Part shown: positions 2,521 through 57,605 of the stretch, in pieces
Layout of the letters: each line of letters opens with the position of its first letter
Position numbering within the stretch: position 1 is the first letter of the stretch
NCBI GenBank assembly: GCA_964642835.1
Contig: CAZXQA010000001.1
Coordinates: forward strand, 202,831 to 266,830
From: an uncultured Candidatus Saccharibacteria bacterium
GTDB lineage: Bacteria > Patescibacteriota > Minisyncoccia > Phycocordibacterales > Zambryskibacteraceae
DNA length: 64,000 nt
Direction of reading: 5' to 3'
Program-made: the position numbers and the translations under genes
Notes under the pieces: model-generated
What the model saw: the letters and a program-made list of their open reading frames with translations, nothing else
What the model was told of the DNA's origin: nothing
The model's database searches: none

Positions 2521-3786
2521 ATGTATAGACCAGGGTCAAACAACAGCGGACGCGCTTCGAGCGCTCCTCGCGCCGGCGGTAAGCCGTCCTTCAGGGGCGG
2601 TTTTGGTGCTGGCTCACGCGGTGCTCGTCCAGGTGGTCGTGGTGGTGCTCGCCCGGGTCGCAGCCGCTTTGCGGACAAGTCTTTCTCCGACCTTTCTAAA
2701 TTCGTGAATAAAGTTTCTGTCGTCGAAGAGGCCGAAGTCTTTGTCCCCGAACACACCTTCACTGATTTCCTAATCGCCGAGAAGCTCAAACAAAACATTT
2801 TGACGAAGGGCTACACGCTCCCGACGCCGATTCAGGATAAGGTTATCCCGCACATTCTTCGTCGCGAAGATGTCGTGGGTATCGCGAACACAGGTACCGG
2901 TAAGACCGCCGCCTTCCTCATCCCTCTCATCGACAAGGTGCTTCGGGATGGCAATCAGAACGTGCTTATCATGGTCCCGACGCGCGAGCTCGCGGGTCAG
3001 ATTCGCGACGAATTGTCTGGATTCACGAGTGGTATGAGCATCTGGTCGGTGGTATGCGTCGGCGGCACCTCGATCGTGCCTCAGATCAAGGCTTTGCGAC
3101 ACAAGAATCAGTTCGTGATCGGCACGCCTGGTCGCTTGAAGGACCTTATGGAGCAGGGCTACCTTCGTTTGAACGAGTACGGCACTGTGGTCCTCGACGA
3201 AGCGGACCGCATGCTCGACATGGGCTTCATTAACGACGTGAAGATGATGCTCGGGAAGCTTCCGGCTGACCGTCACACCCTCTTCTTCTCCGCGACGACT
3301 ACGCCCGAGATCACAGGCCTCATTTCCAAATTCTTGAAGCAGCCGGTTACCATTTCCGTTAAAACACGCGATACCTCTGGCTCGATCGACCAGGATGTTG
3401 TTCGCGTCGCTCATCACGAAGATAAGATTGGTAAGCTCGCCGATCTGCTTCGCACCGCCGATTTCTCGAAGGTGCTCGTCTTCGGCAAGACCAAACACGG
3501 CGTCGAGAAGCTCGCTAAGGCTCTCACTACCATGGGTCTGCGTGCCGAATCCATTCACGGGAACAAAAATTTCAATAAACGCCAACAGGCTTTGAGTCAG
3601 TTTAAAGATAACAAGGTGAAGATCCTCGTGGCGACCGACGTCGCCGCGCGCGGTCTCGACATTGCCGACGTCTCTCACGTTATTAACTTCGATTTGCCAG
3701 CTACGTACGAAGACTACATTCACCGCATCGGCCGCACTGGCCGCGGGGGCAAGAAGGGCAACGCTCTCACGTTTGTCCAAGGTTAA
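2521..3786 (+). CDS. DEAD-box ATP-dependent RNA helicase with N-terminal Arg/Gly-rich extension
   Basis: Q-motif, Walker A NTGTGKTAAF, DEAD box VVLDEADRMLDMGF, SAT, HRIGRTGRGG motif VI. Confidence 0.9.
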   Translation: MYRPGSNNSGRASSAPRAGGKPSFRGGFGAGSRGARPGGRGGARPGRSRFADKSFSDLSKFVNKVSVVEEAEVFVPEHTFTDFLIAEKLKQNILTKGYTLPTPIQDKVIPHILRREDVVGIANTGTGKTAAFLIPLIDKVLRDGNQNVLIMVPTRELAGQIRDELSGFTSGMSIWSVVCVGGTSIVPQIKALRHKNQFVIGTPGRLKDLMEQGYLRLNEYGTVVLDEADRMLDMGFINDVKMMLGKLPADRHTLFFSATTTPEITGLISKFLKQPVTISVKTRDTSGSIDQDVVRVAHHEDKIGKLADLLRTADFSKVLVFGKTKHGVEKLAKALTTMGLRAESIHGNKNFNKRQQALSQFKDNKVKILVATDVAARGLDIADVSHVINFDLPATYEDYIHRIGRTGRGGKKGNALTFVQG

Positions 3787-3850
3787 TCCCCTAGGTGAGG
3801 GTGGCTTTATTTTTCTCTGTGAGTAGGGGATAATACGAAGATTCAACTAT

Positions 3851-4738
3851 ATGAATATGAAAAACAACAAGAACGTGTGGGTCATTGCAGGCGCGATTGT
3901 AACGATTCTCGTGATCTGGGCCCTTGTGCATGTCTCGAGAAGCTCCCGCACTCTCCTTGGTTCGGCTACGTACTTCTGTGACGCTGGTAAATCGATCGAA
4001 GCAAAGTTCTATAGTGGCAAGGAAATGGAAGCTCCTCTTCCAGGCGAGATGCCTCAGCCTACAGGTACGCTTGATGTCTCTCTTGATAACGGCCCTGTCA
4101 TGAATCTTCGCCAGACGATTTCCGCAGATGGTGTTCGTTATGCCAATAGCGATGAGTCCTTAGTAGTTTGGAGTAAGGGTACGACCGTACTCGTCATGAG
4201 AAATAACACCATGGATCTTGCGTATACCAACTGCGATGCTGCGCGCCTTGCGAACGCGACTTCCACTCCCGCCCAACCTCTTCCCACGACACCTTTGAAA
4301 CCCGCTCCACCCGCTCCTGCTGAACCAGTAGCTTGCACCATGGAAGCAAGAATTTGTCCTGATGGTAGCTATGTGGGTCGCACGGGCCCGAAGTGCGAAT
4401 TTAGTGCTTGCCCAACTATGGTTGGTCAGGTTGATCTGGGCACACTCTCAGTGGGGCAAACGAGAGTTATTAACGGTGTCTCTATCTCCGTCAATAAAGT
4501 AGTCGAAGACAGTCGCTGCCCATCGAACGTTCAGTGTATCCAGGCCGGACGCGCGCTCGTTTCTGTGACCTTGGCAGCTGGAACAGAGGCGAATACAGTG
4601 AACCTTTCTTCTCAGCCGGTAGTACCATATGTCTTCGGAGGCTCGAAGATTTCCCTCATCGAAGTATTGCCTGAGCGTCATGAGACGACGCTTCCCACGC
4701 AATCAAGTTACCGCCTGACCTTCCGAGTCGAGAAATAA
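3851..4738 (+). CDS. membrane-anchored protein with MliC-like (lysozyme inhibitor) domain, Pro-rich linker and Cys-containing C-terminal domain
   Basis: N-terminal TM helix; CDAGKSIEAKFYSG...SADGVRYANSDESLVVWSKG pattern resembles MliC family; rest unassigned. Confidence 0.5.
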   Translation: MNMKNNKNVWVIAGAIVTILVIWALVHVSRSSRTLLGSATYFCDAGKSIEAKFYSGKEMEAPLPGEMPQPTGTLDVSLDNGPVMNLRQTISADGVRYANSDESLVVWSKGTTVLVMRNNTMDLAYTNCDAARLANATSTPAQPLPTTPLKPAPPAPAEPVACTMEARICPDGSYVGRTGPKCEFSACPTMVGQVDLGTLSVGQTRVINGVSISVNKVVEDSRCPSNVQCIQAGRALVSVTLAAGTEANTVNLSSQPVVPYVFGGSKISLIEVLPERHETTLPTQSSYRLTFRVEK

Positions 4739-43385: not shown

Positions 43386-44028
43386 GAGTGAAGAACCGGA
43401 AGCCTACCGCCTCGGCTGGATTCCTTTTATACACACGCATATTTGGCTCGATTCAAAGCCGCTCATCCCACGACCAGAAACTGAATACTGGGCACATGAA
43501 CTTATCTGCAAGTTCCAAGCTCTAAGCTCTACACCTCTTAAGGTTCTTGATCTTTGCGCCGGCTCGGGAGCGATTGGCGTCGCTCTCGCGCAGGAAATTC
43601 CAACGGCTACAGTCGACTTCGTGGAACTCGATGAGAAGCATCACGAAACGATCCGGAAAAATATCAAAGAAAACGGTATTGAAGAGAACCGAATAAGGAT
43701 TTTTGGAGGAGATTTGTTCGAACAGGTGCAAGATTCCTACGATGTAATCTTCTCAAACCCACCCTACATCGATATGAACTTGGGTAGGGTAGAGGACTCT
43801 GTGCTCGACCATGAGCCTCACCTCGCTCTCGATGGCGGTATGCATGGCACGGCCATCATCGCGCGCATTCTGGCTGCCGCACCATCGCATCTCAAACCTC
43901 GCGGCGCTCTTTGGTTGGAACACGAGCCTGAACAGGTTGAGTGGCTTTCGATACAGGCAGGCTATACGGCTTCTTACCCCGATCAATACGGTGTCTTGCG
44001 CTACTCCATCTTTGCCGCTTTTCCCTAA
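43372..44028 (+). CDS. prmC: release factor glutamine methyltransferase PrmC/HemK (short form)
   Basis: SAM motif [14 protein letters not shown] motif; start overlaps prfA 3' end. Confidence 0.75.
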
Positions 44029-44048: not shown

Positions 44049-44082
44049 TATCCCCAGTTTTTGCAAAGGTCTAACCTCTGCA
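44049..44082 (+). repeat. intergenic repeat copy 1: TATCCCCAGTTTTTG + degenerate palindrome TGCAAAGGTCTAACCTCTGCA
   Basis: 15/15 identity to 50711-50725; palindrome related to 50358-50378 and 50737-50757. Confidence 0.55.
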
Positions 44083-44090
44083 TGATGTGC

Positions 44091-44119
44091 TTGACAATAT
44101 ATTGTATATATGATAAGTT
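44091..44119 (+). promoter_or_regulatory. sigma70-like promoter with no ORF downstream
   Basis: TTGACA (44091-44096), 17-nt spacer, extended -10 TGATAAGTT. Confidence 0.4.
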
Positions 44120-44125
44120 AAGAGC

Positions 44126-44505
44126 AGATAGGGTACGGCCTGGTTTAAGGGGAGGGGAAATTCCCAGGGGAAGGCAATTACATCACAGACCTCACATAAA
44201 GGCCTCACACGACCGGAACAACGGGAGAGCACGCGCATTTAAGCGACCTGCATACTACCCAACCGGCACGAGGCCACTGCTCAGAAGAGCAAGAGGCAGT
44301 GATTGCGCCAGCCACTGTTCGGACAAATCACCTTTCCACCCAGACCGTACCCCATAGCGCATCCAACAGGGCTGCATGCAGCCCGAACAGGAGAGTTATG
44401 GCGAAGAAGACCGAAGACCGAGTTGCGGCGTAGATCCGCAACCGGCTGGGGGTGGCACGAAGCCACCCCGTCGATAGGGCCGCCCAACACACCGGGCGGC
44501 CCTTT
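44126..44505 (+). ncRNA. candidate long structured noncoding RNA of unknown class between prmC and rpsB
   Basis: about 390 nt with no ORF over 60 aa in sensible context, many local hairpins (e.g. GGGGTGG-CACGAAG-CCACCCC), ends in GGGCCGCCC-AACACACC-GGGCGGCCC hairpin plus TTTT. Confidence 0.3.
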
Positions 44506-44648
44506 TCCTTGTCTAAACAGGACTTTCCTGCTATAGTTCTCTAGCTTTTAAGGCTTCGGTCGGCCTTTATCAATAACCAAAAGCACAAGGTCCCTGACCC
44601 GGATCTGTCCGCCTCGTGAGAGAGGCGCGATAGCAAAACCACTCACAC

Positions 44649-49885: not shown

Positions 49886-50106
49886 ACATCCATCAAAATA
49901 CCTTGTAATCTACTGACCAGGCGTTCCACTAACCATATTCGGGGGTCAGAGTGCGCACTACGAATTGGGATAGGTTAATCACGTCGGACCCACGGGATTC
50001 CGTTGCAGCCCGGGTTACCAGAGCTTCACCTCGCTGGTGTGCTCCACCGCAGGAAGTAAGGCCGAAGGTGCAGATCGAACCGACGGCAGCGACCCTGCCG
50101 ACCGAC

Positions 50107-50298
50107 ATGTCCAACTTTACGGGTAAAAGAATTGGTTCAATCGTGATCACAGGGTTCTGGAAGAAAGGGCGCCCGGCACGCAACAGTGTCTGGAAAGGCC
50201 TTTGCGACTGCGGCAAAACGGTCTACCGTCGACACCATTGGGTGAAAAATCCTCGGGACGACAACTACGACCGGTGCGACGCCTGCGCTCATCGGTAG
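50107..50298 (+). CDS. hypothetical small Cys-cluster (zinc-ribbon-like) protein
   Basis: CDCG...CDAC motif; preceded by about 180 nt GC-rich structured leader; followed by strong terminator; longer GTG-initiated version 49951..50298 also possible. Confidence 0.35.
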   Translation: MSNFTGKRIGSIVITGFWKKGRPARNSVWKGLCDCGKTVYRRHHWVKNPRDDNYDRCDACAHR

Positions 50299-50311
50299 AA
50301 CAACGAAACCA

Positions 50312-50342
50312 AGCCGCCTAGTTCACGCTAGGCGGCTTTTTT
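50312..50342 (+). terminator. rho-independent terminator
   Basis: GCCGCCTAG-TTCACG-CTAGGCGGC then TTTTTT. Confidence 0.7.
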
Positions 50343-50378
50343 ATCCCCATCTCCTCCTGCAAAGGATAATCCTTTGCA
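50341..50378 (+). repeat. intergenic repeat copy 2: TTATCCCCA + perfect palindrome TGCAAAGGATAATCCTTTGCA
   Basis: palindrome identical to 50737-50757; TTATCCCCA is 8/9 DnaA-box consensus. Confidence 0.55.
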
Positions 50379-50428
50379 ACTTGAAGCCATCTTTTGGTAT
50401 CGTGAGGAAGGACGCATCGAGGAGACCC

Positions 50429-50671
50429 ATGGCTACATACATCAGTGAACGGCCCGTCAAAACCGAGCGTTCCGATCGAGTCATCAGGATGTTCCAAAAC
50501 ACCTTCCCAATCGGCAAGATTGAGGTGGTGCAACCTGCTCACAACCCGCCAGAAGTCTCTCAAGCGAAATCGGCTTACTTTGCCATCGAGATTCCAATCT
50601 TAGAAGAAGAGAGGCTCGCTGTCTGGCTCAACCGACTCAACGGTCGCCAGATGAAGAAGCAGAAGAAATAA
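50429..50671 (+). CDS. hypothetical small protein flanked by the palindromic repeats
   Basis: ATG with GGAGA RBS; followed by strong terminator; no family motif (ORF track gives TTG-start version 50381..50671). Confidence 0.35.
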   Translation: MATYISERPVKTERSDRVIRMFQNTFPIGKIEVVQPAHNPPEVSQAKSAYFAIEIPILEEERLAVWLNRLNGRQMKKQKK

Positions 50672-50674
50672 ACC

Positions 50675-50707
50675 CCGCCGCCCGGAACATCGGGCGGCTG
50701 TTTTTAT
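50675..50707 (+). terminator. rho-independent terminator
   Basis: CCGCCCG-GAACAT-CGGGCGG then CTGTTTTTAT. Confidence 0.7.
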
Positions 50708-50709
50708 AC

Positions 50710-50757
50710 TTATCCCCAGTTTTTGATCTATTTTATGCAAAGGATAATCCTTTGCAT
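50710..50757 (+). repeat. intergenic repeat copy 3: TTATCCCCAGTTTTTG + 10 nt + palindrome TGCAAAGGATAATCCTTTGCA, immediately upstream of gyrB promoter
   Basis: shares 15-mer with copy 1 and 21-mer palindrome with copy 2; TATAAT at 50795-50800 follows. Confidence 0.55.
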
Positions 50758-50816
50758 GGGGGCAAAATACGGCTTTCTTGTAGAGCTAAAATCTGCTATA
50801 ATACGGGGTACCAAAC

Positions 50817-54636: not shown

Positions 54637-56400
54637 ATGCTTAGTCTCGAAAATCGCCTCCGCGTCATCACGCTCTTCCTCGTCCTCTTTGCTCTCTTGC
54701 TCGTGAGCAAGCTGTACTTCCTGCAAATTATTCAAGGAGAAGAATTCCGCGCCAAGGCTGAGCACCAGTACGTGGCAGGGATTAACTACTTCGACCGAGG
54801 CTCCATTTTCTTTACCACGAAGGACGGGACGCTTGTCCCCGGAGCCACTGTGAGATCAGGCTTTACCTTAAGCGTGAACCCGAACATCCTTGCCCCTCTC
54901 CCGAACCTCGATGAAATATACGGGAAGCTCAACGCTCTCGTCCCTATGGAGAAAGCCACCTTCCTCTCTAAAGCCAAGAAGGCAGGGGACCCGTACGAAG
55001 AATTGGCCAAGCGCCTCGACAGCCCAACAGCCGAAGCCATCCAGAGCTTGAAGTTCACGGGTGTCTCCGTCACGCGCGAACGCTGGCGCACCTACCCTGG
55101 AGAGACCATGGCCGCCCACACGCTCGGCCTCATTGGCTATGGCGACGGGAACGAACTTGCCGGGCGTTACGGTCTCGAGCGCTTCTACGAGGACACGCTC
55201 AAACGCGACGGCGACGAAGTCTTCGTCAATTTCTTCGCCGAAATCTTCTCGAACCTGCGCTCTGCCGTGACGGAAGGACAGGGAGCGGAAGGAGACATCG
55301 TTACGACGATCGAGCCCTCGGTAGAAGCCTTTTTGGAACGGGAGTTAAATGAGGTGACCAACACGTATTCCTCCGAATTCACGGGCGGTATCATCATTGA
55401 TCCGCACACGGGAGAAATCCGCGCCATGGCCCTGACGCCCACCTTCGACCCCAACTCTCCAGCCAGCGCCAAGAACGCGAGTGTCTTTACCAACAAGCTC
55501 GTTGAGGGCCGCTACGAAATGGGCTCGATCGTAAAGGCCTTCACCTATGCTATCGGTCTCCAAGAGAAAGCCATCACCGCGAAGACGACCTACAACGACC
55601 CTGGCTGTCTTACCTTAAACACAAAGACCTTCTGTAACTACGACGGGGCCTCGCACGGCTCAAGCGTGAGCATGCAATCTGCTCTGGGCCAGTCTCTCAA
55701 CACTGGCGCCGCCTTCGTGGTGAGCAAGGTAGGAACGAAGAAGTTTAGCGAGGACTTGCTCTCCTTCGGCCTCGAAGAGAAGACGGGGATCGACCTGCCG
55801 AACGAAGGCAACTCGCTCGTCTCGAACCTCCACACCAACCGCGAGCTCGAAGCCGCTCAAGCCTCCTTCGGACAGGGTATCGCGCTCACTCCGGTGGGAA
55901 TCGTGCGTGCTCTCTCCGTCCTTGCAAATGGCGGCACACTGATCACCCCACACCTGGTCAAAAAGATCGACTACAAGATCGGTCCGGCCAAAACTATTTC
56001 CTATCCTGCGCCCGAGGAGCGCACGCGTGTCATTTCTGAGGAAACATCGGCCGCTATTTCTCAAATGCTTACCGAGGTGGTCGACAGGAGCCTGCGCTTC
56101 GGCGATATGCGTCTTGAGAACTACTCCATTGCCGCAAAGACCGGTACCGCCCAGATCGCCGCGCCGACAGGTGGGTATTACGCGGACCGCTACCTTCATT
56201 CCTTCTTCGGTTACTTCCCAGCCTATAACCCAGAGTATCTCGTCTTCCTCTATACCTATTACCCCAAGAACGTGCAATACGCTTCGGAAACACTGACGGA
56301 CTCTTTCTTTAATATTGCGAAGTTCCTTATCAACTACTACGAGATCCCGCCGGACCGTGAGAAGGCACCAGAACCTGATCAAACTCTTAGAAATTATTAA
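54637..56400 (+). CDS. ftsI: peptidoglycan D,D-transpeptidase FtsI / penicillin-binding protein (class B)
   Basis: N-terminal TM, dimerisation domain, SIVK (SxxK), SLN, KTGT motifs. Confidence 0.85.
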   Translation: MLSLENRLRVITLFLVLFALLLVSKLYFLQIIQGEEFRAKAEHQYVAGINYFDRGSIFFTTKDGTLVPGATVRSGFTLSVNPNILAPLPNLDEIYGKLNALVPMEKATFLSKAKKAGDPYEELAKRLDSPTAEAIQSLKFTGVSVTRERWRTYPGETMAAHTLGLIGYGDGNELAGRYGLERFYEDTLKRDGDEVFVNFFAEIFSNLRSAVTEGQGAEGDIVTTIEPSVEAFLERELNEVTNTYSSEFTGGIIIDPHTGEIRAMALTPTFDPNSPASAKNASVFTNKLVEGRYEMGSIVKAFTYAIGLQEKAITAKTTYNDPGCLTLNTKTFCNYDGASHGSSVSMQSALGQSLNTGAAFVVSKVGTKKFSEDLLSFGLEEKTGIDLPNEGNSLVSNLHTNRELEAAQASFGQGIALTPVGIVRALSVLANGGTLITPHLVKKIDYKIGPAKTISYPAPEERTRVISEETSAAISQMLTEVVDRSLRFGDMRLENYSIAAKTGTAQIAAPTGGYYADRYLHSFFGYFPAYNPEYLVFLYTYYPKNVQYASETLTDSFFNIAKFLINYYEIPPDREKAPEPDQTLRNY

Positions 56401-56441
56401 AAACTGCTGCGACCATGAAGGTTGCAGCAGTCGTCGAGGTT

Positions 56442-57038
56442 CTACCCTCTTTTCACCTTGAGAGGAGGGAGGTCGAGTTCAGAAAAATCGATCGGAGCTT
56501 GCCCAGTACGCGGGCGACGCTTGAGCGCCGACGAGAGCCGTTCGCTCATCTCAATCACATTTTCTCCTGAGGAGTTGGAAAAGATGAGCCAGCCATTCCA
56601 CACGAGTTTGTGGAGAGCGCCTTGAAGTTCTTTTCTTCGCTGCTCGAGCTCGTCGTCAGCAAGCTCGTACGTGCGGATAACCGACGTAAAGCCGCCGACC
56701 ATGAACGTTTGCGGCAGAAGACTCCGCAGCCGCGGTTTGGACATCTGCCCAAGCGTTGGCAACCACAAGAGCCAGTAGCAAACCCTCTTACGCGCGTAAC
56801 GCGTGCGAGCTAGTCGGAGTGCATGTTCATGCCGCCTGCGTGCTTCTTGCGAAGCTTGCACATCAGCTTCCATACTCTCATCAAACTCTTCAACGGTAAC
56901 CGGAGAGGAAGGATGCCGGTGGGCGAGGAGAGTGATACGGGAGACAACTTCCCGCTCGTGGATGTTCGAGAACATCCCACACAGGAATGAATTCTCAACA
57001 GGCACGTATTCAACAACAGAAAAAACGTTGTGACGCAT
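56442..57038 (-). CDS. hypothetical protein, monocistronic unit between twin terminators
   Basis: AAGGAGGT RBS 7 nt upstream of ATG; terminators with identical CATGAAGG loops on both sides. Confidence 0.45.
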   Translation of the reverse strand: MRHNVFSVVEYVPVENSFLCGMFSNIHEREVVSRITLLAHRHPSSPVTVEEFDESMEADVQASQEARRRHEHALRLARTRYARKRVCYWLLWLPTLGQMSKPRLRSLLPQTFMVGGFTSVIRTYELADDELEQRRKELQGALHKLVWNGWLIFSNSSGENVIEMSERLSSALKRRPRTGQAPIDFSELDLPPLKVKRG

Positions 57039-57100: not shown

Positions 57101-57134
57101 AAAAAGCTCCACCCATGAAGGTGGAGCTTTTTGT
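57101..57134. terminator. bidirectional terminator
   Basis: AAAAAGCTCCACC-CATGAA-GGTGGAGCTTTTT. Confidence 0.65.
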
Positions 57135-57267
57135 ATGCCATGACCCAAGTGGGACGTAATTGGAACCAGTTGGTAACAGAATTATACAATTGGCAGAAAT
57201 TCGGTAAAGAGTTGGCTAGGGTATAAAACAGAAAGCCCACCCTAAGGTAGGATTCCTGTTGGGTGGG

Positions 57268-57525
57268 CTAATGCATATCACAATTGCAGTTTCCGTCGCG
57301 GCAAAGCCGATGTTGTTCGACTCTGCGGACGAATTCCTCGACATCGTCCTGGTGGATCTCGAGAGAATGGTAATCGGCAGGAGTGCCCCTGAATCGAAGA
57401 CCCTCGCCCAGATTGGGGTAGCCCTGGATTTTTCCATCCACATAACGACTCGCGTACTGACACTGCTGCCTCAGTCGAGCTCGGGCGATATCGCCGAAGT
57501 TGACGAAACCCTCCGTCTGCGCCAT
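57268..57525 (-). CDS. small hypothetical protein with its own consensus promoter, SD and terminator
   Basis: AGGAGA 8 nt before ATG; C-terminal CRDGNCNCDMH Cys/His cluster; terminator hairpin CCCACCC..GGGTGGG plus T-run downstream. Confidence 0.5.
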   Translation of the reverse strand: MAQTEGFVNFGDIARARLRQQCQYASRYVDGKIQGYPNLGEGLRFRGTPADYHSLEIHQDDVEEFVRRVEQHRLCRDGNCNCDMH

Positions 57526-57576
57526 TTGAATTTCTCCTGTTTATGTTGGCGACAAGCCAAAATTGTCTCTATCACA

Positions 57577-57605
57577 ATACTAGCATATCAAAATCTATTT
57601 GTCAA
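57577..57605 (-). promoter_or_regulatory. near-consensus sigma70 promoter for small ORF
   Basis: minus strand TTGACA (57605-57600), 17-nt spacer, TAGTAT (57582-57577). Confidence 0.5.

Follow-up and report, generated by a model that had tools for sequence, protein, structure and literature searches.

The 64,000-nucleotide (nt) stretch of DNA analyzed here, hereafter the window (contig CAZXQA010000001.1, positions counted from the first letter of the stretch), carries the gene order L31, prfA, prmC, a 620-nt gap, rpsB, tsf and a conserved 230-amino-acid (aa) unknown. Within the gap lies the element under study, a unit of about 385 nt bounded by a promoter and an intrinsic terminator, which an initial annotation had placed between prmC and rpsB and proposed as a novel or divergent housekeeping RNA. 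Both flanking genes were verified, prmC by its NPPY motif and MTS domain (stop at 44028) and rpsB by protein matches. The nearest matches of RpsB were uncultured Patescibacteria, with named Zambryskibacteria at 72–74% identity, and an identical RpsB is encoded on a contig of 486,712 nt. The host is, on sequence grounds, a Parcubacteria-type Patescibacterium. Two Logan assemblies of this organism carry the unit without any sequence difference, and at least two sequencing runs yielded it in independent assemblies.

The unit begins with a sigma-70-type promoter with an extended −10 element on the plus strand (44091–44119), lying at or within 1–2 nt of the place given in the initial annotation. 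It consists of TTGACA (44091–44096), a 17-nt spacer and TAAGTT (44114–44119), with the extending TG at 44111–44112, and transcription is predicted to start near 44126. A generic promoter scanner left this site out because its −10 box matches TATAAT at only three of six bases. The extended motif TTGACA-N13-15-TGnTAnnnT nevertheless had four occurrences in the 64 kb where 0.04 would be expected, a count that none of 100 shuffled sequences reached, and the remaining three copies sit before open reading frames (ORFs) in the correct orientation. For both reasons we regard the predicted promoter as real. Extended −10 boxes were the rule upstream of genes in the window, often few bases before leaderless start codons. 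A Shine-Dalgarno (SD) sequence was absent from most window genes, being present in 8 of 52 by a loose test, and many genes showed TGnTAnnnT 6–12 nt before the start codon (for example 1962, 6315, 31751, 36127 on the minus strand, 47429 on the minus strand, 48728 and 50817). Leaderless or near-leaderless mRNAs therefore appear to be widespread in this genome.

At its other end the unit is closed by an intrinsic terminator on the plus strand (44476–44511), formed by a GC stem (44476–44503; arms AGGGCCGCCC and GGGCGGCCCT, the 3′ arm also read as GGGCGGCCCU) with an 8-nt loop, followed by the tail UUUUCCUU (also read as TTTTCCTT). The hairpin and tail had been recognized in the initial annotation, which described a perfect 9-bp stem with a T-run; the stem is 10 bp long. 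The predicted primary transcript (44126–44511, plus strand, ~385 nt) is U-poor, with 14% U, and has a G+C content of 59% as compared to 53% for the window. Its minimum free energy (MFE) was −167.6 kcal/mol, corresponding to a z score of −7.4, with none of 100 shuffled sequences as stable, and the MFE base pairs had a mean probability of 0.90. The abundant local structure noted earlier is thus above chance. In a sliding scan of the whole window with segments of 200 nt, the segment 44401–44600 ranked first of 639 windows (z −9.1).

The predicted fold starts with a 222-nt rod domain (44131–44352, plus strand), which is closed by helix P1 (GGGUACGG/CCGUACCC, 44131–44138 and 44345–44352) and contains a three-way junction with a long branch (44201–44275) and a short hairpin, UGCUC-AGAA-GAGCA (44278–44291). 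The closing arms of the rod form a 16-nt inverted repeat (ATAGGGTACGGCCTGG/CCAGACCGTACCCCAT) that matches at 14 of 16 positions (88% complementary). Taken alone, the rod gave z −5.8, and none of 200 shuffled sequences was as stable. It is followed on the same strand by three structures of the MFE fold before the terminator. The first (44353–44400) is a helix of CAUAGC/GUUAUG and UCC/GGA around the hairpin GGGCUG-CAUG-CAGCCC (44369–44384), in which an SD-like AGGAG (44389–44393) and an AUG (44398–44400) are both paired. The second (44422–44442) is the 7-bp hairpin GUUGCGG-CGUAGAU-CCGCAAC, with a UAG stop codon in its 7-nt loop, and the third (44449–44469) is the 8-bp hairpin GGGGUGGC-ACGAA-GCCACCCC. 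The latter two are the hairpins named in the initial annotation, and the 3′ hairpin region as a whole gave z −4.2.

ORFs of 40–138 aa are present on both strands at the unit, and a further listing of its open frames ran from 36 to 118 codons. None of its ORFs matched Pfam, no gene was called in the unit in two independent assemblies, and tblastx against the related loci, including the cargo genes of relatives described below, gave no translated similarity. A phmmer search with the 77-aa read-through frame against 1.84 billion representative proteins returned a single match, an unrelated repeat protein. The earlier statement that the unit holds no plausible ORF is upheld in this sense. The frame that deserves mention is a putative ORF of 11 codons, MAKKTEDRVAA followed by UAG (44398–44433, plus strand), which is preceded at a distance of 4 nt by the SD-like AGGAG. 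A degenerate back-translation of AKKTEDRVAA plus stop had no match in a metagenome collection. On the minus strand, a type I toxin was considered for a 54-aa ORF with a hydrophobic stretch and rejected, because its start codon falls within the terminator hairpin and no promoter was found on that strand.

The unit was then compared with known RNA families. At the Rfam gathering score the whole window yielded only three transfer RNAs (tRNAs). At E ≤ 10, with cuts of 751 nt and 356 nt searched on both strands, Rfam returned noise only (a small nucleolar RNA and terminator-like hairpins). Divergent RNase P, transfer-messenger RNA (tmRNA) and 6S models, which the initial annotation had suggested, were included at this threshold. 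None of these matched, the alpha, beta and cyano forms of tmRNA among them, and there was no match to SRP RNA either. ARAGORN found no tmRNA, standard or permuted. These searches bear out the absence of RNase P, tmRNA and signal recognition particle (SRP) hallmarks reported before.

Bacterial RNase P RNA, of type A or B, has a P4 core and the conserved regions CR-I to CR-V within 330–400 nt closed by P1. For this family no covariance model matched at E ≤ 10, the P1-closed domain of the unit is only 222 nt, and the unit is absent from relatives at this site. 6S RNA mimics an open promoter by means of a large central bubble in a rod of ~180–200 nt. The MFE fold of the unit instead shows a three-way junction, its largest internal loop is 6 + 2 nt with no two-sided bubble, and there was no Rfam 6S match. 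Domain IV (helix 8) of SRP RNA carries symmetric and asymmetric loops and a GNRA tetraloop; at E ≤ 10 the unit had no match to either of the bacterial SRP models, small or large. A riboswitch, T-box or ribosomal protein leader was rejected as well, as only an 11-codon ORF and then a terminator lie downstream, rpsB has a separate promoter and leader, and no Rfam cis-regulatory family matched. Local resemblances to a T-box (GGGUGGCAC), a cobalamin riboswitch (GCCACUG, CCAGGGGAAGGC) and a flavin mononucleotide riboswitch (GGGGAAAUUCCC) were likewise set aside, since the sensitive Rfam models had no match at E ≤ 10.

The likeness to tmRNA (SsrA; RF00023, RF01849–51) called for a closer comparison, above all with the permuted two-piece form and its coding part. 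In its tRNA-like domain, tmRNA has an acceptor stem whose third pair is G-U, a T arm bearing a T-loop, and either (N)CCA or a discriminator at the 3′ end; the stop codon of the tag lies in the loop of helix 5, and the gene is near-universal, single-copy and conserved among relatives. The unit is similar to tmRNA in length, in its short frame with alanine after the AUG and the ending ...VAA, and in its structured elements before and after the frame. The tag-like part of the frame runs GCG...GUU GCG GCG UAG, with the UAG in the loop of the 7-bp hairpin as in helix 5. The rod with its branch before the frame loosely recalls the layout of a permuted tmRNA gene. However, the unit lacks a detectable tRNA-like domain and a covariance-model match, has a frame with its own in-frame AUG and SD-like site, both paired, and shows no conservation even in its closest relative. 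No acceptor stem, T arm, CCA or UUCRA T-loop with a stem was visible in the unit sequence. The specific permuted arrangement that we tried (rod as P2, T arm and acceptor, then a hairpin resembling pseudoknot PK1, then the tag) failed for want of a T-loop, a GGGG 5′ acceptor strand and CCA, and the order of its branches is wrong. The initial annotation had likewise called the resemblance of the mini-ORF to a tag superficial and unsupported by any tRNA-like domain. Furthermore, the figures given in a census of Patescibacteria (5,275 tmRNA genes in 6,765 genomes, or ~0.78 per genome, nearly all in the first form category, which is taken as the standard tmRNA form) indicate that standard tools find ordinary tmRNAs in this phylum (PMC11915505). 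Taken together with the absence of the unit from relatives, to which we now turn, a divergent housekeeping RNA, be it a permuted or aberrant tmRNA, RNase P RNA, 6S RNA or SRP RNA, is extremely improbable.

The same locus was examined in a comparison set of 80 rpsB loci from species-representative genomes and further assemblies (80–106 related loci depending on the search). In the nearest other genome (L001; RpsB 90% and PrmC 87.5% identical) the flanks aligned almost base for base. The alignment ran to ...CTCTGCATG and resumed at TTTTCCTTGTCTAAAC, with 14 nt in between as compared to ~420 nt in the window. The unit was absent at the locus from L001 and from every other relative examined. A lack of conservation had been named in the initial annotation as a finding that would speak against its proposal, and for conservation at this site that is what was found. 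Of the proposal itself, the novel structured RNA candidate stands, and the housekeeping role does not.

What the relatives carry between prfA and rpsB differed widely. In a group at 86% identity (L083–L089) prfA leads directly to rpsB, and in L091 and L002 prmC is followed by a short gap. Three other loci carry an ORF in this slot, of 133 aa in L090, 140 aa in L004 and 343 aa, regulator-like, in L003; the ORFs of L090 and L004 bear no relation to one another, and no match to the unit was found in either. At all three cargo-bearing loci, similar terminators of the form CCGCC...GGCGG close the slot immediately ahead of the rpsB −35 box. The prmC gene is missing in the L083 group, L090 and L018. 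In L018, a Minisyncoccia metagenome-assembled genome, the interval between prfA and rpsB holds another promoter-to-terminator non-coding unit (3669–3917; TTGACA-16-TATAGT, ~215 nt, z −4.1), which had no Rfam match and no sequence or model similarity to the window unit or to any fetched sequence. Because the prfA/prmC–rpsB junction is empty, occupied by prmC only or filled with unrelated cargo across relatives, we regard it as a hypervariable cargo slot, and the orphan RNA-like unit of L018 indicates that RNA-like cargo is recurrent there. The housekeeping interpretation fails on this comparison, since neither the 90% relative nor any of the others has the unit at this locus, the slot is variable and no defining housekeeping feature was found. 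The unit is not a housekeeping RNA.

Searches beyond the slot gave the same result. With blastn and nhmmer no homolog of the unit was found in the related loci, and a covariance model built from the single rod sequence found no relative over 645 kb. Likewise, blastn against phage and plasmid collections gave no relative. Exact 18–21-mers (four patterns) had three chance matches only in viral contigs, and a junction 18-mer had seven chance matches only in metagenome contigs. A search for strain variants through exact RpsB, PrmC and EF-Ts proteins returned identical copies only. The absence of relatives, as gauged by these related loci, phage and plasmid comparisons and viral and metagenome patterns, is provisional. 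In these searches (related loci, phage, plasmid, viral and metagenome) no homolog was available in which structure conservation or covariation could be followed.

The protein-coding cargo of the relatives bears on what we consider the main rival explanation, namely that the unit is the relic of a cargo gene. Here a structured, riboswitch-like 5′ leader would have been kept while an internal deletion left the promoter, the MAKKTEDR... codons, a stop and the terminator, and the remainder would be decaying without current function. Protein-coding cargo closed by a similar terminator is found in the slot in relatives, and the lack of conservation is consistent with decay. The AGGAG 4 nt upstream of the AUG lies with it in a helix resembling a translational expression platform, and elsewhere in the window the ACAGGAGA context recurs at another small ORF led by an SD. 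As in translational riboswitches and structured leaders, a large folded domain comes directly before a helix in which the SD-like sequence and the start codon are paired. Unlike in such leaders, the only downstream ORF has 11 codons and ends before a terminator, the neighboring rpsB has its own promoter and leader, and no family matches. In a genome of mostly leaderless-looking genes, a leader of 270 nt would also be exceptional; searches at E ≤ 10 gave no riboswitch or leader family, no residual protein similarity was detected in any frame, and promoter and terminator are both intact. We judge a relic to be a possible, if unlikely, explanation.

The left edge of the inserted sequence is marked by a repeated intergenic module (44049–44082, no strand assigned) made up of TATCCCCAGTTTTTG and the palindrome TGCAAAGG-N5-CCTCTGCA (44062–44082). 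The palindrome, whose form across copies is TGCAAAGG-N5-CCTTTGCA (with CCTYTGCA also as right arm), occurs three times in the window against 0.02 expected. Each copy sits between the end of a gene and the next promoter, that of the unit (44062–44082), of an ORF of ~80 aa (50358–50378) and of gyrB (50736–50756), and TATCCCCAGTTTTTG precedes it at two copies. The palindrome ends 8 nt before the −35 box of the unit. It is restricted to the host species and the 90% relative, and it is kept in the latter (L001 3808–3828), which is without the unit. From its sequence and placement it could be an operator shared with gyrB or simply a repeated intergenic module.

The gyrB copy also informs the direction of change. 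There the palindrome is followed by TGGGGGC...CTTTCTTGT, the last being the −35 element, and in L001 the slot continues in parallel fashion with TGAGGGTATGGGGGCC TTTTCCTTGT, again with the −35 element at the end. Because of this parallel, the arrangement of L001 suggests an intact, uninserted state, in which case the window lineage would have gained the unit; a loss in L001 is the less likely alternative. We had considered AGGGTATGG in L001 as a deletion scar or remnant of P1, and this was withdrawn when the paralogous gyrB module was found to continue with TGCATGGGGGC as well.

A gain of this kind might also reflect a foldback insertion resembling a miniature inverted-repeat transposable element (MITE), or foreign DNA that folds fortuitously and has no function, the rod being an imperfect inverted repeat. 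The unit shares with MITE and foldback elements (Correia, ERIC and RUP-type) the presence/absence polymorphism between close relatives, the 16-nt terminal inverted repeats (14/16) that bound the rod and a rod-like fold, and its raised G+C content points the same way. It differs from them in being single-copy in the available sequence, in lacking a target-site duplication, in an interior that is not a simple palindrome and in carrying a full promoter and terminator. The rod ends (...GCAG|ATAGGG and CCCCAT|AGCG) are flanked by no direct repeat, and no second copy of the rod arms was found in the 64-kb window or in the fetched loci outside the same species. A repeat finder (seed 7, minimum length 9) detected no inverted repeats across the rod beyond the 16-nt closing arms, and the interior is therefore not an obvious decayed palindrome. 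A first-class promoter, moreover, is placed exactly at the base of P1. Such an insertion is in our view distinctly unlikely.

Downstream, the terminator of the unit meets the promoter of rpsB (44509–44537, plus strand; TTGTCT-17-TATAGT), the boxes of which had been identified correctly in the initial annotation at coordinates shifted by one (44510–44538). The terminator tail overlaps the −35 box of this promoter, and its U tract is short (UUUUCC). This arrangement is what a cis-acting role would draw on, with the unit acting as a structured 3′ untranslated region of prfA–prmC or as a promoter and leader-peptide attenuator feeding read-through into rpsB–tsf. In line with this, no terminator was found from the prmC stop to the unit, the 11-codon ORF ends in UAG, which is specific for release factor 1, 43 nt before the terminator, and GGGUGGC (44450–44456), as read from the sequence, could pair alternatively with GCCGCCC of the terminator 5′ arm. 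That antiterminator would, however, be in competition with an 8-bp hairpin that forms locally without a mismatch, and there is no mechanism to release it. In addition, rpsB has retained a promoter of its own and a leader of 105 nt, both conserved in seven relatives without the unit, and relatives run both operons without it. We consider a cis-acting role improbable.

The rpsB 5′ leader is of interest in its own right. It spans ~105 nt (44538–44648), is conserved in seven distinct relatives and has no Rfam match; copies were located in L001 (3880–4000), L003 (3168–3290), L004 (3899–4000), L083 (2891–3000), L090 (2897–3000) and L091 (2889–3000). Its elements are a hairpin AAGGC-UUCGGUCG-GCCUU, an invariant AAGCACAAGG and a closing (U/A)GGCAAAA. 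A further hairpin, AGGUCC-CUGACCN-GGAUCU, shows compensatory changes in L091 and L090, and a variable third hairpin is re-formed by different sequences in each relative when judged by eye, whereas RNAalifold gave no pairs there. The leader is a candidate S2 autoregulatory leader of Parcubacteria. An 8-nt complementarity between the mini-ORF region and the loop of an rpsB leader hairpin is, by estimate, at chance level.

With moderate confidence, we interpret the unit as a species-specific, independently transcribed and highly structured accessory RNA gene that was recently placed in the cargo slot. That it would be accessory and not housekeeping is decided by the comparative evidence, namely its absence from relatives and the varying contents of the slot. 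Under this interpretation, RNA polymerase would start near 44126, three to five bases ahead of the closing helix, and the RNA would fold into the 222-nt rod with its three-way junction, followed by three hairpins. It would then act as an RNA, either as a trans-acting regulator or as a protein-binding scaffold, with the 11-codon ORF silenced by the pairing of its SD-like site and AUG. With the shared palindrome 8 nt ahead of its −35 box, the unit may come under common regulation with gyrB and the small ORF. Transcripts of prfA–prmC probably also enter the unit, since there is no terminator between them.

Stand-alone small RNA (sRNA) genes offer the closest model. They have their own sigma-70 promoter and intrinsic terminator, are restricted to a species or genus and are known from many enterobacterial and Gram-positive examples; typical trans-acting sRNAs measure 50–250 nt. 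A promoter and a terminator of its own on the same strand, by which an independent sRNA is recognized, were both found for the unit, which is also intergenic, strongly structured, without a conserved ORF and narrowly distributed. It differs from typical trans-acting sRNAs in its larger size of ~385 nt, and no relatives were found. We know of no Hfq- or ProQ-type context in Patescibacteria.

A number of observations weigh against an accessory RNA gene. The minus strand of the unit also folds well (z −6.0), and the calculated stability of the fold could be too high because the 5′ arm is rich in G and the 3′ arm in C; the promoter and U-tailed terminator were found on the plus strand only. The AGGAG 4 nt ahead of the AUG has, by estimate, a roughly 5% chance of being a coincidence, and with the AUG it hints at a translated or once-translated ORF. 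The fold has no covariation support because no homolog was found. Function as an RNA is proposed from thermodynamics and signals alone, and the discrete transcript is likewise a prediction from sequence signals. Finally, paralogs or a multi-copy nature are possible, as the searches for copies in the organism's own genome covered the 64-kb window of a ~487-kb genome (13%). In a bolder version, which is a long shot, Patescibacteria would possess a new class of accessory structured RNAs, with the unit as the first one seen. Such RNAs would be gained horizontally at a hotspot beside the translation genes prfA/prmC and rpsB–tsf, the place where L018 has its own, unrelated RNA-like unit. The window unit would be co-regulated with gyrB through the palindrome as a common operator and engaged in translation or its quality control. 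Example roles would be a protein-sequestering RNA or a tag-encoding RNA without a tRNA-like domain.

Other parts of the window and of the comparison set also drew attention. The largest ORF-poor gap (49886–50816), which includes two of the palindrome copies, contains two small ORFs, each with its own terminator and no obvious function, encoding a Cys-rich product of ~63 aa (50108–50298) and one of ~80 aa (50430–50671). On the minus strand just downstream of tRNA-Glu (57268–57605), a strong promoter (57605–57577) leads to an SD-led 85-aa ORF (57525–57268) with a CxC...C-rich end and a clean terminator; the scan windows 57101–57300 and 56301–56500 near it gave fold z scores of −8.3 and −7.6. Upstream of rpsB in L074, an AT-rich Parcubacteria genome, there is a near-perfect palindrome of ~126 nt (~3780–3903, z −10), which may represent either a foldback element or a long terminator that acts in both directions.

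Being confined to one species, without relatives and with predicted transcription only, the unit is of value mainly as a pointer. It points to the prfA/prmC–rpsB junction as a cargo slot in this clade, and it led to the conserved, unannotated rpsB leader, which is possibly more informative than the unit itself. The analysis also removed a false lead, that of a divergent tmRNA, RNase P, 6S or SRP RNA. To our knowledge, almost nothing is known of the non-coding RNAs of the candidate phyla radiation. If the unit were a real and abundant structured RNA of 385 nt, it would extend their short list, and it would mean that the gain and loss of RNA genes at defined hotspots continues even in genomes as small as these.

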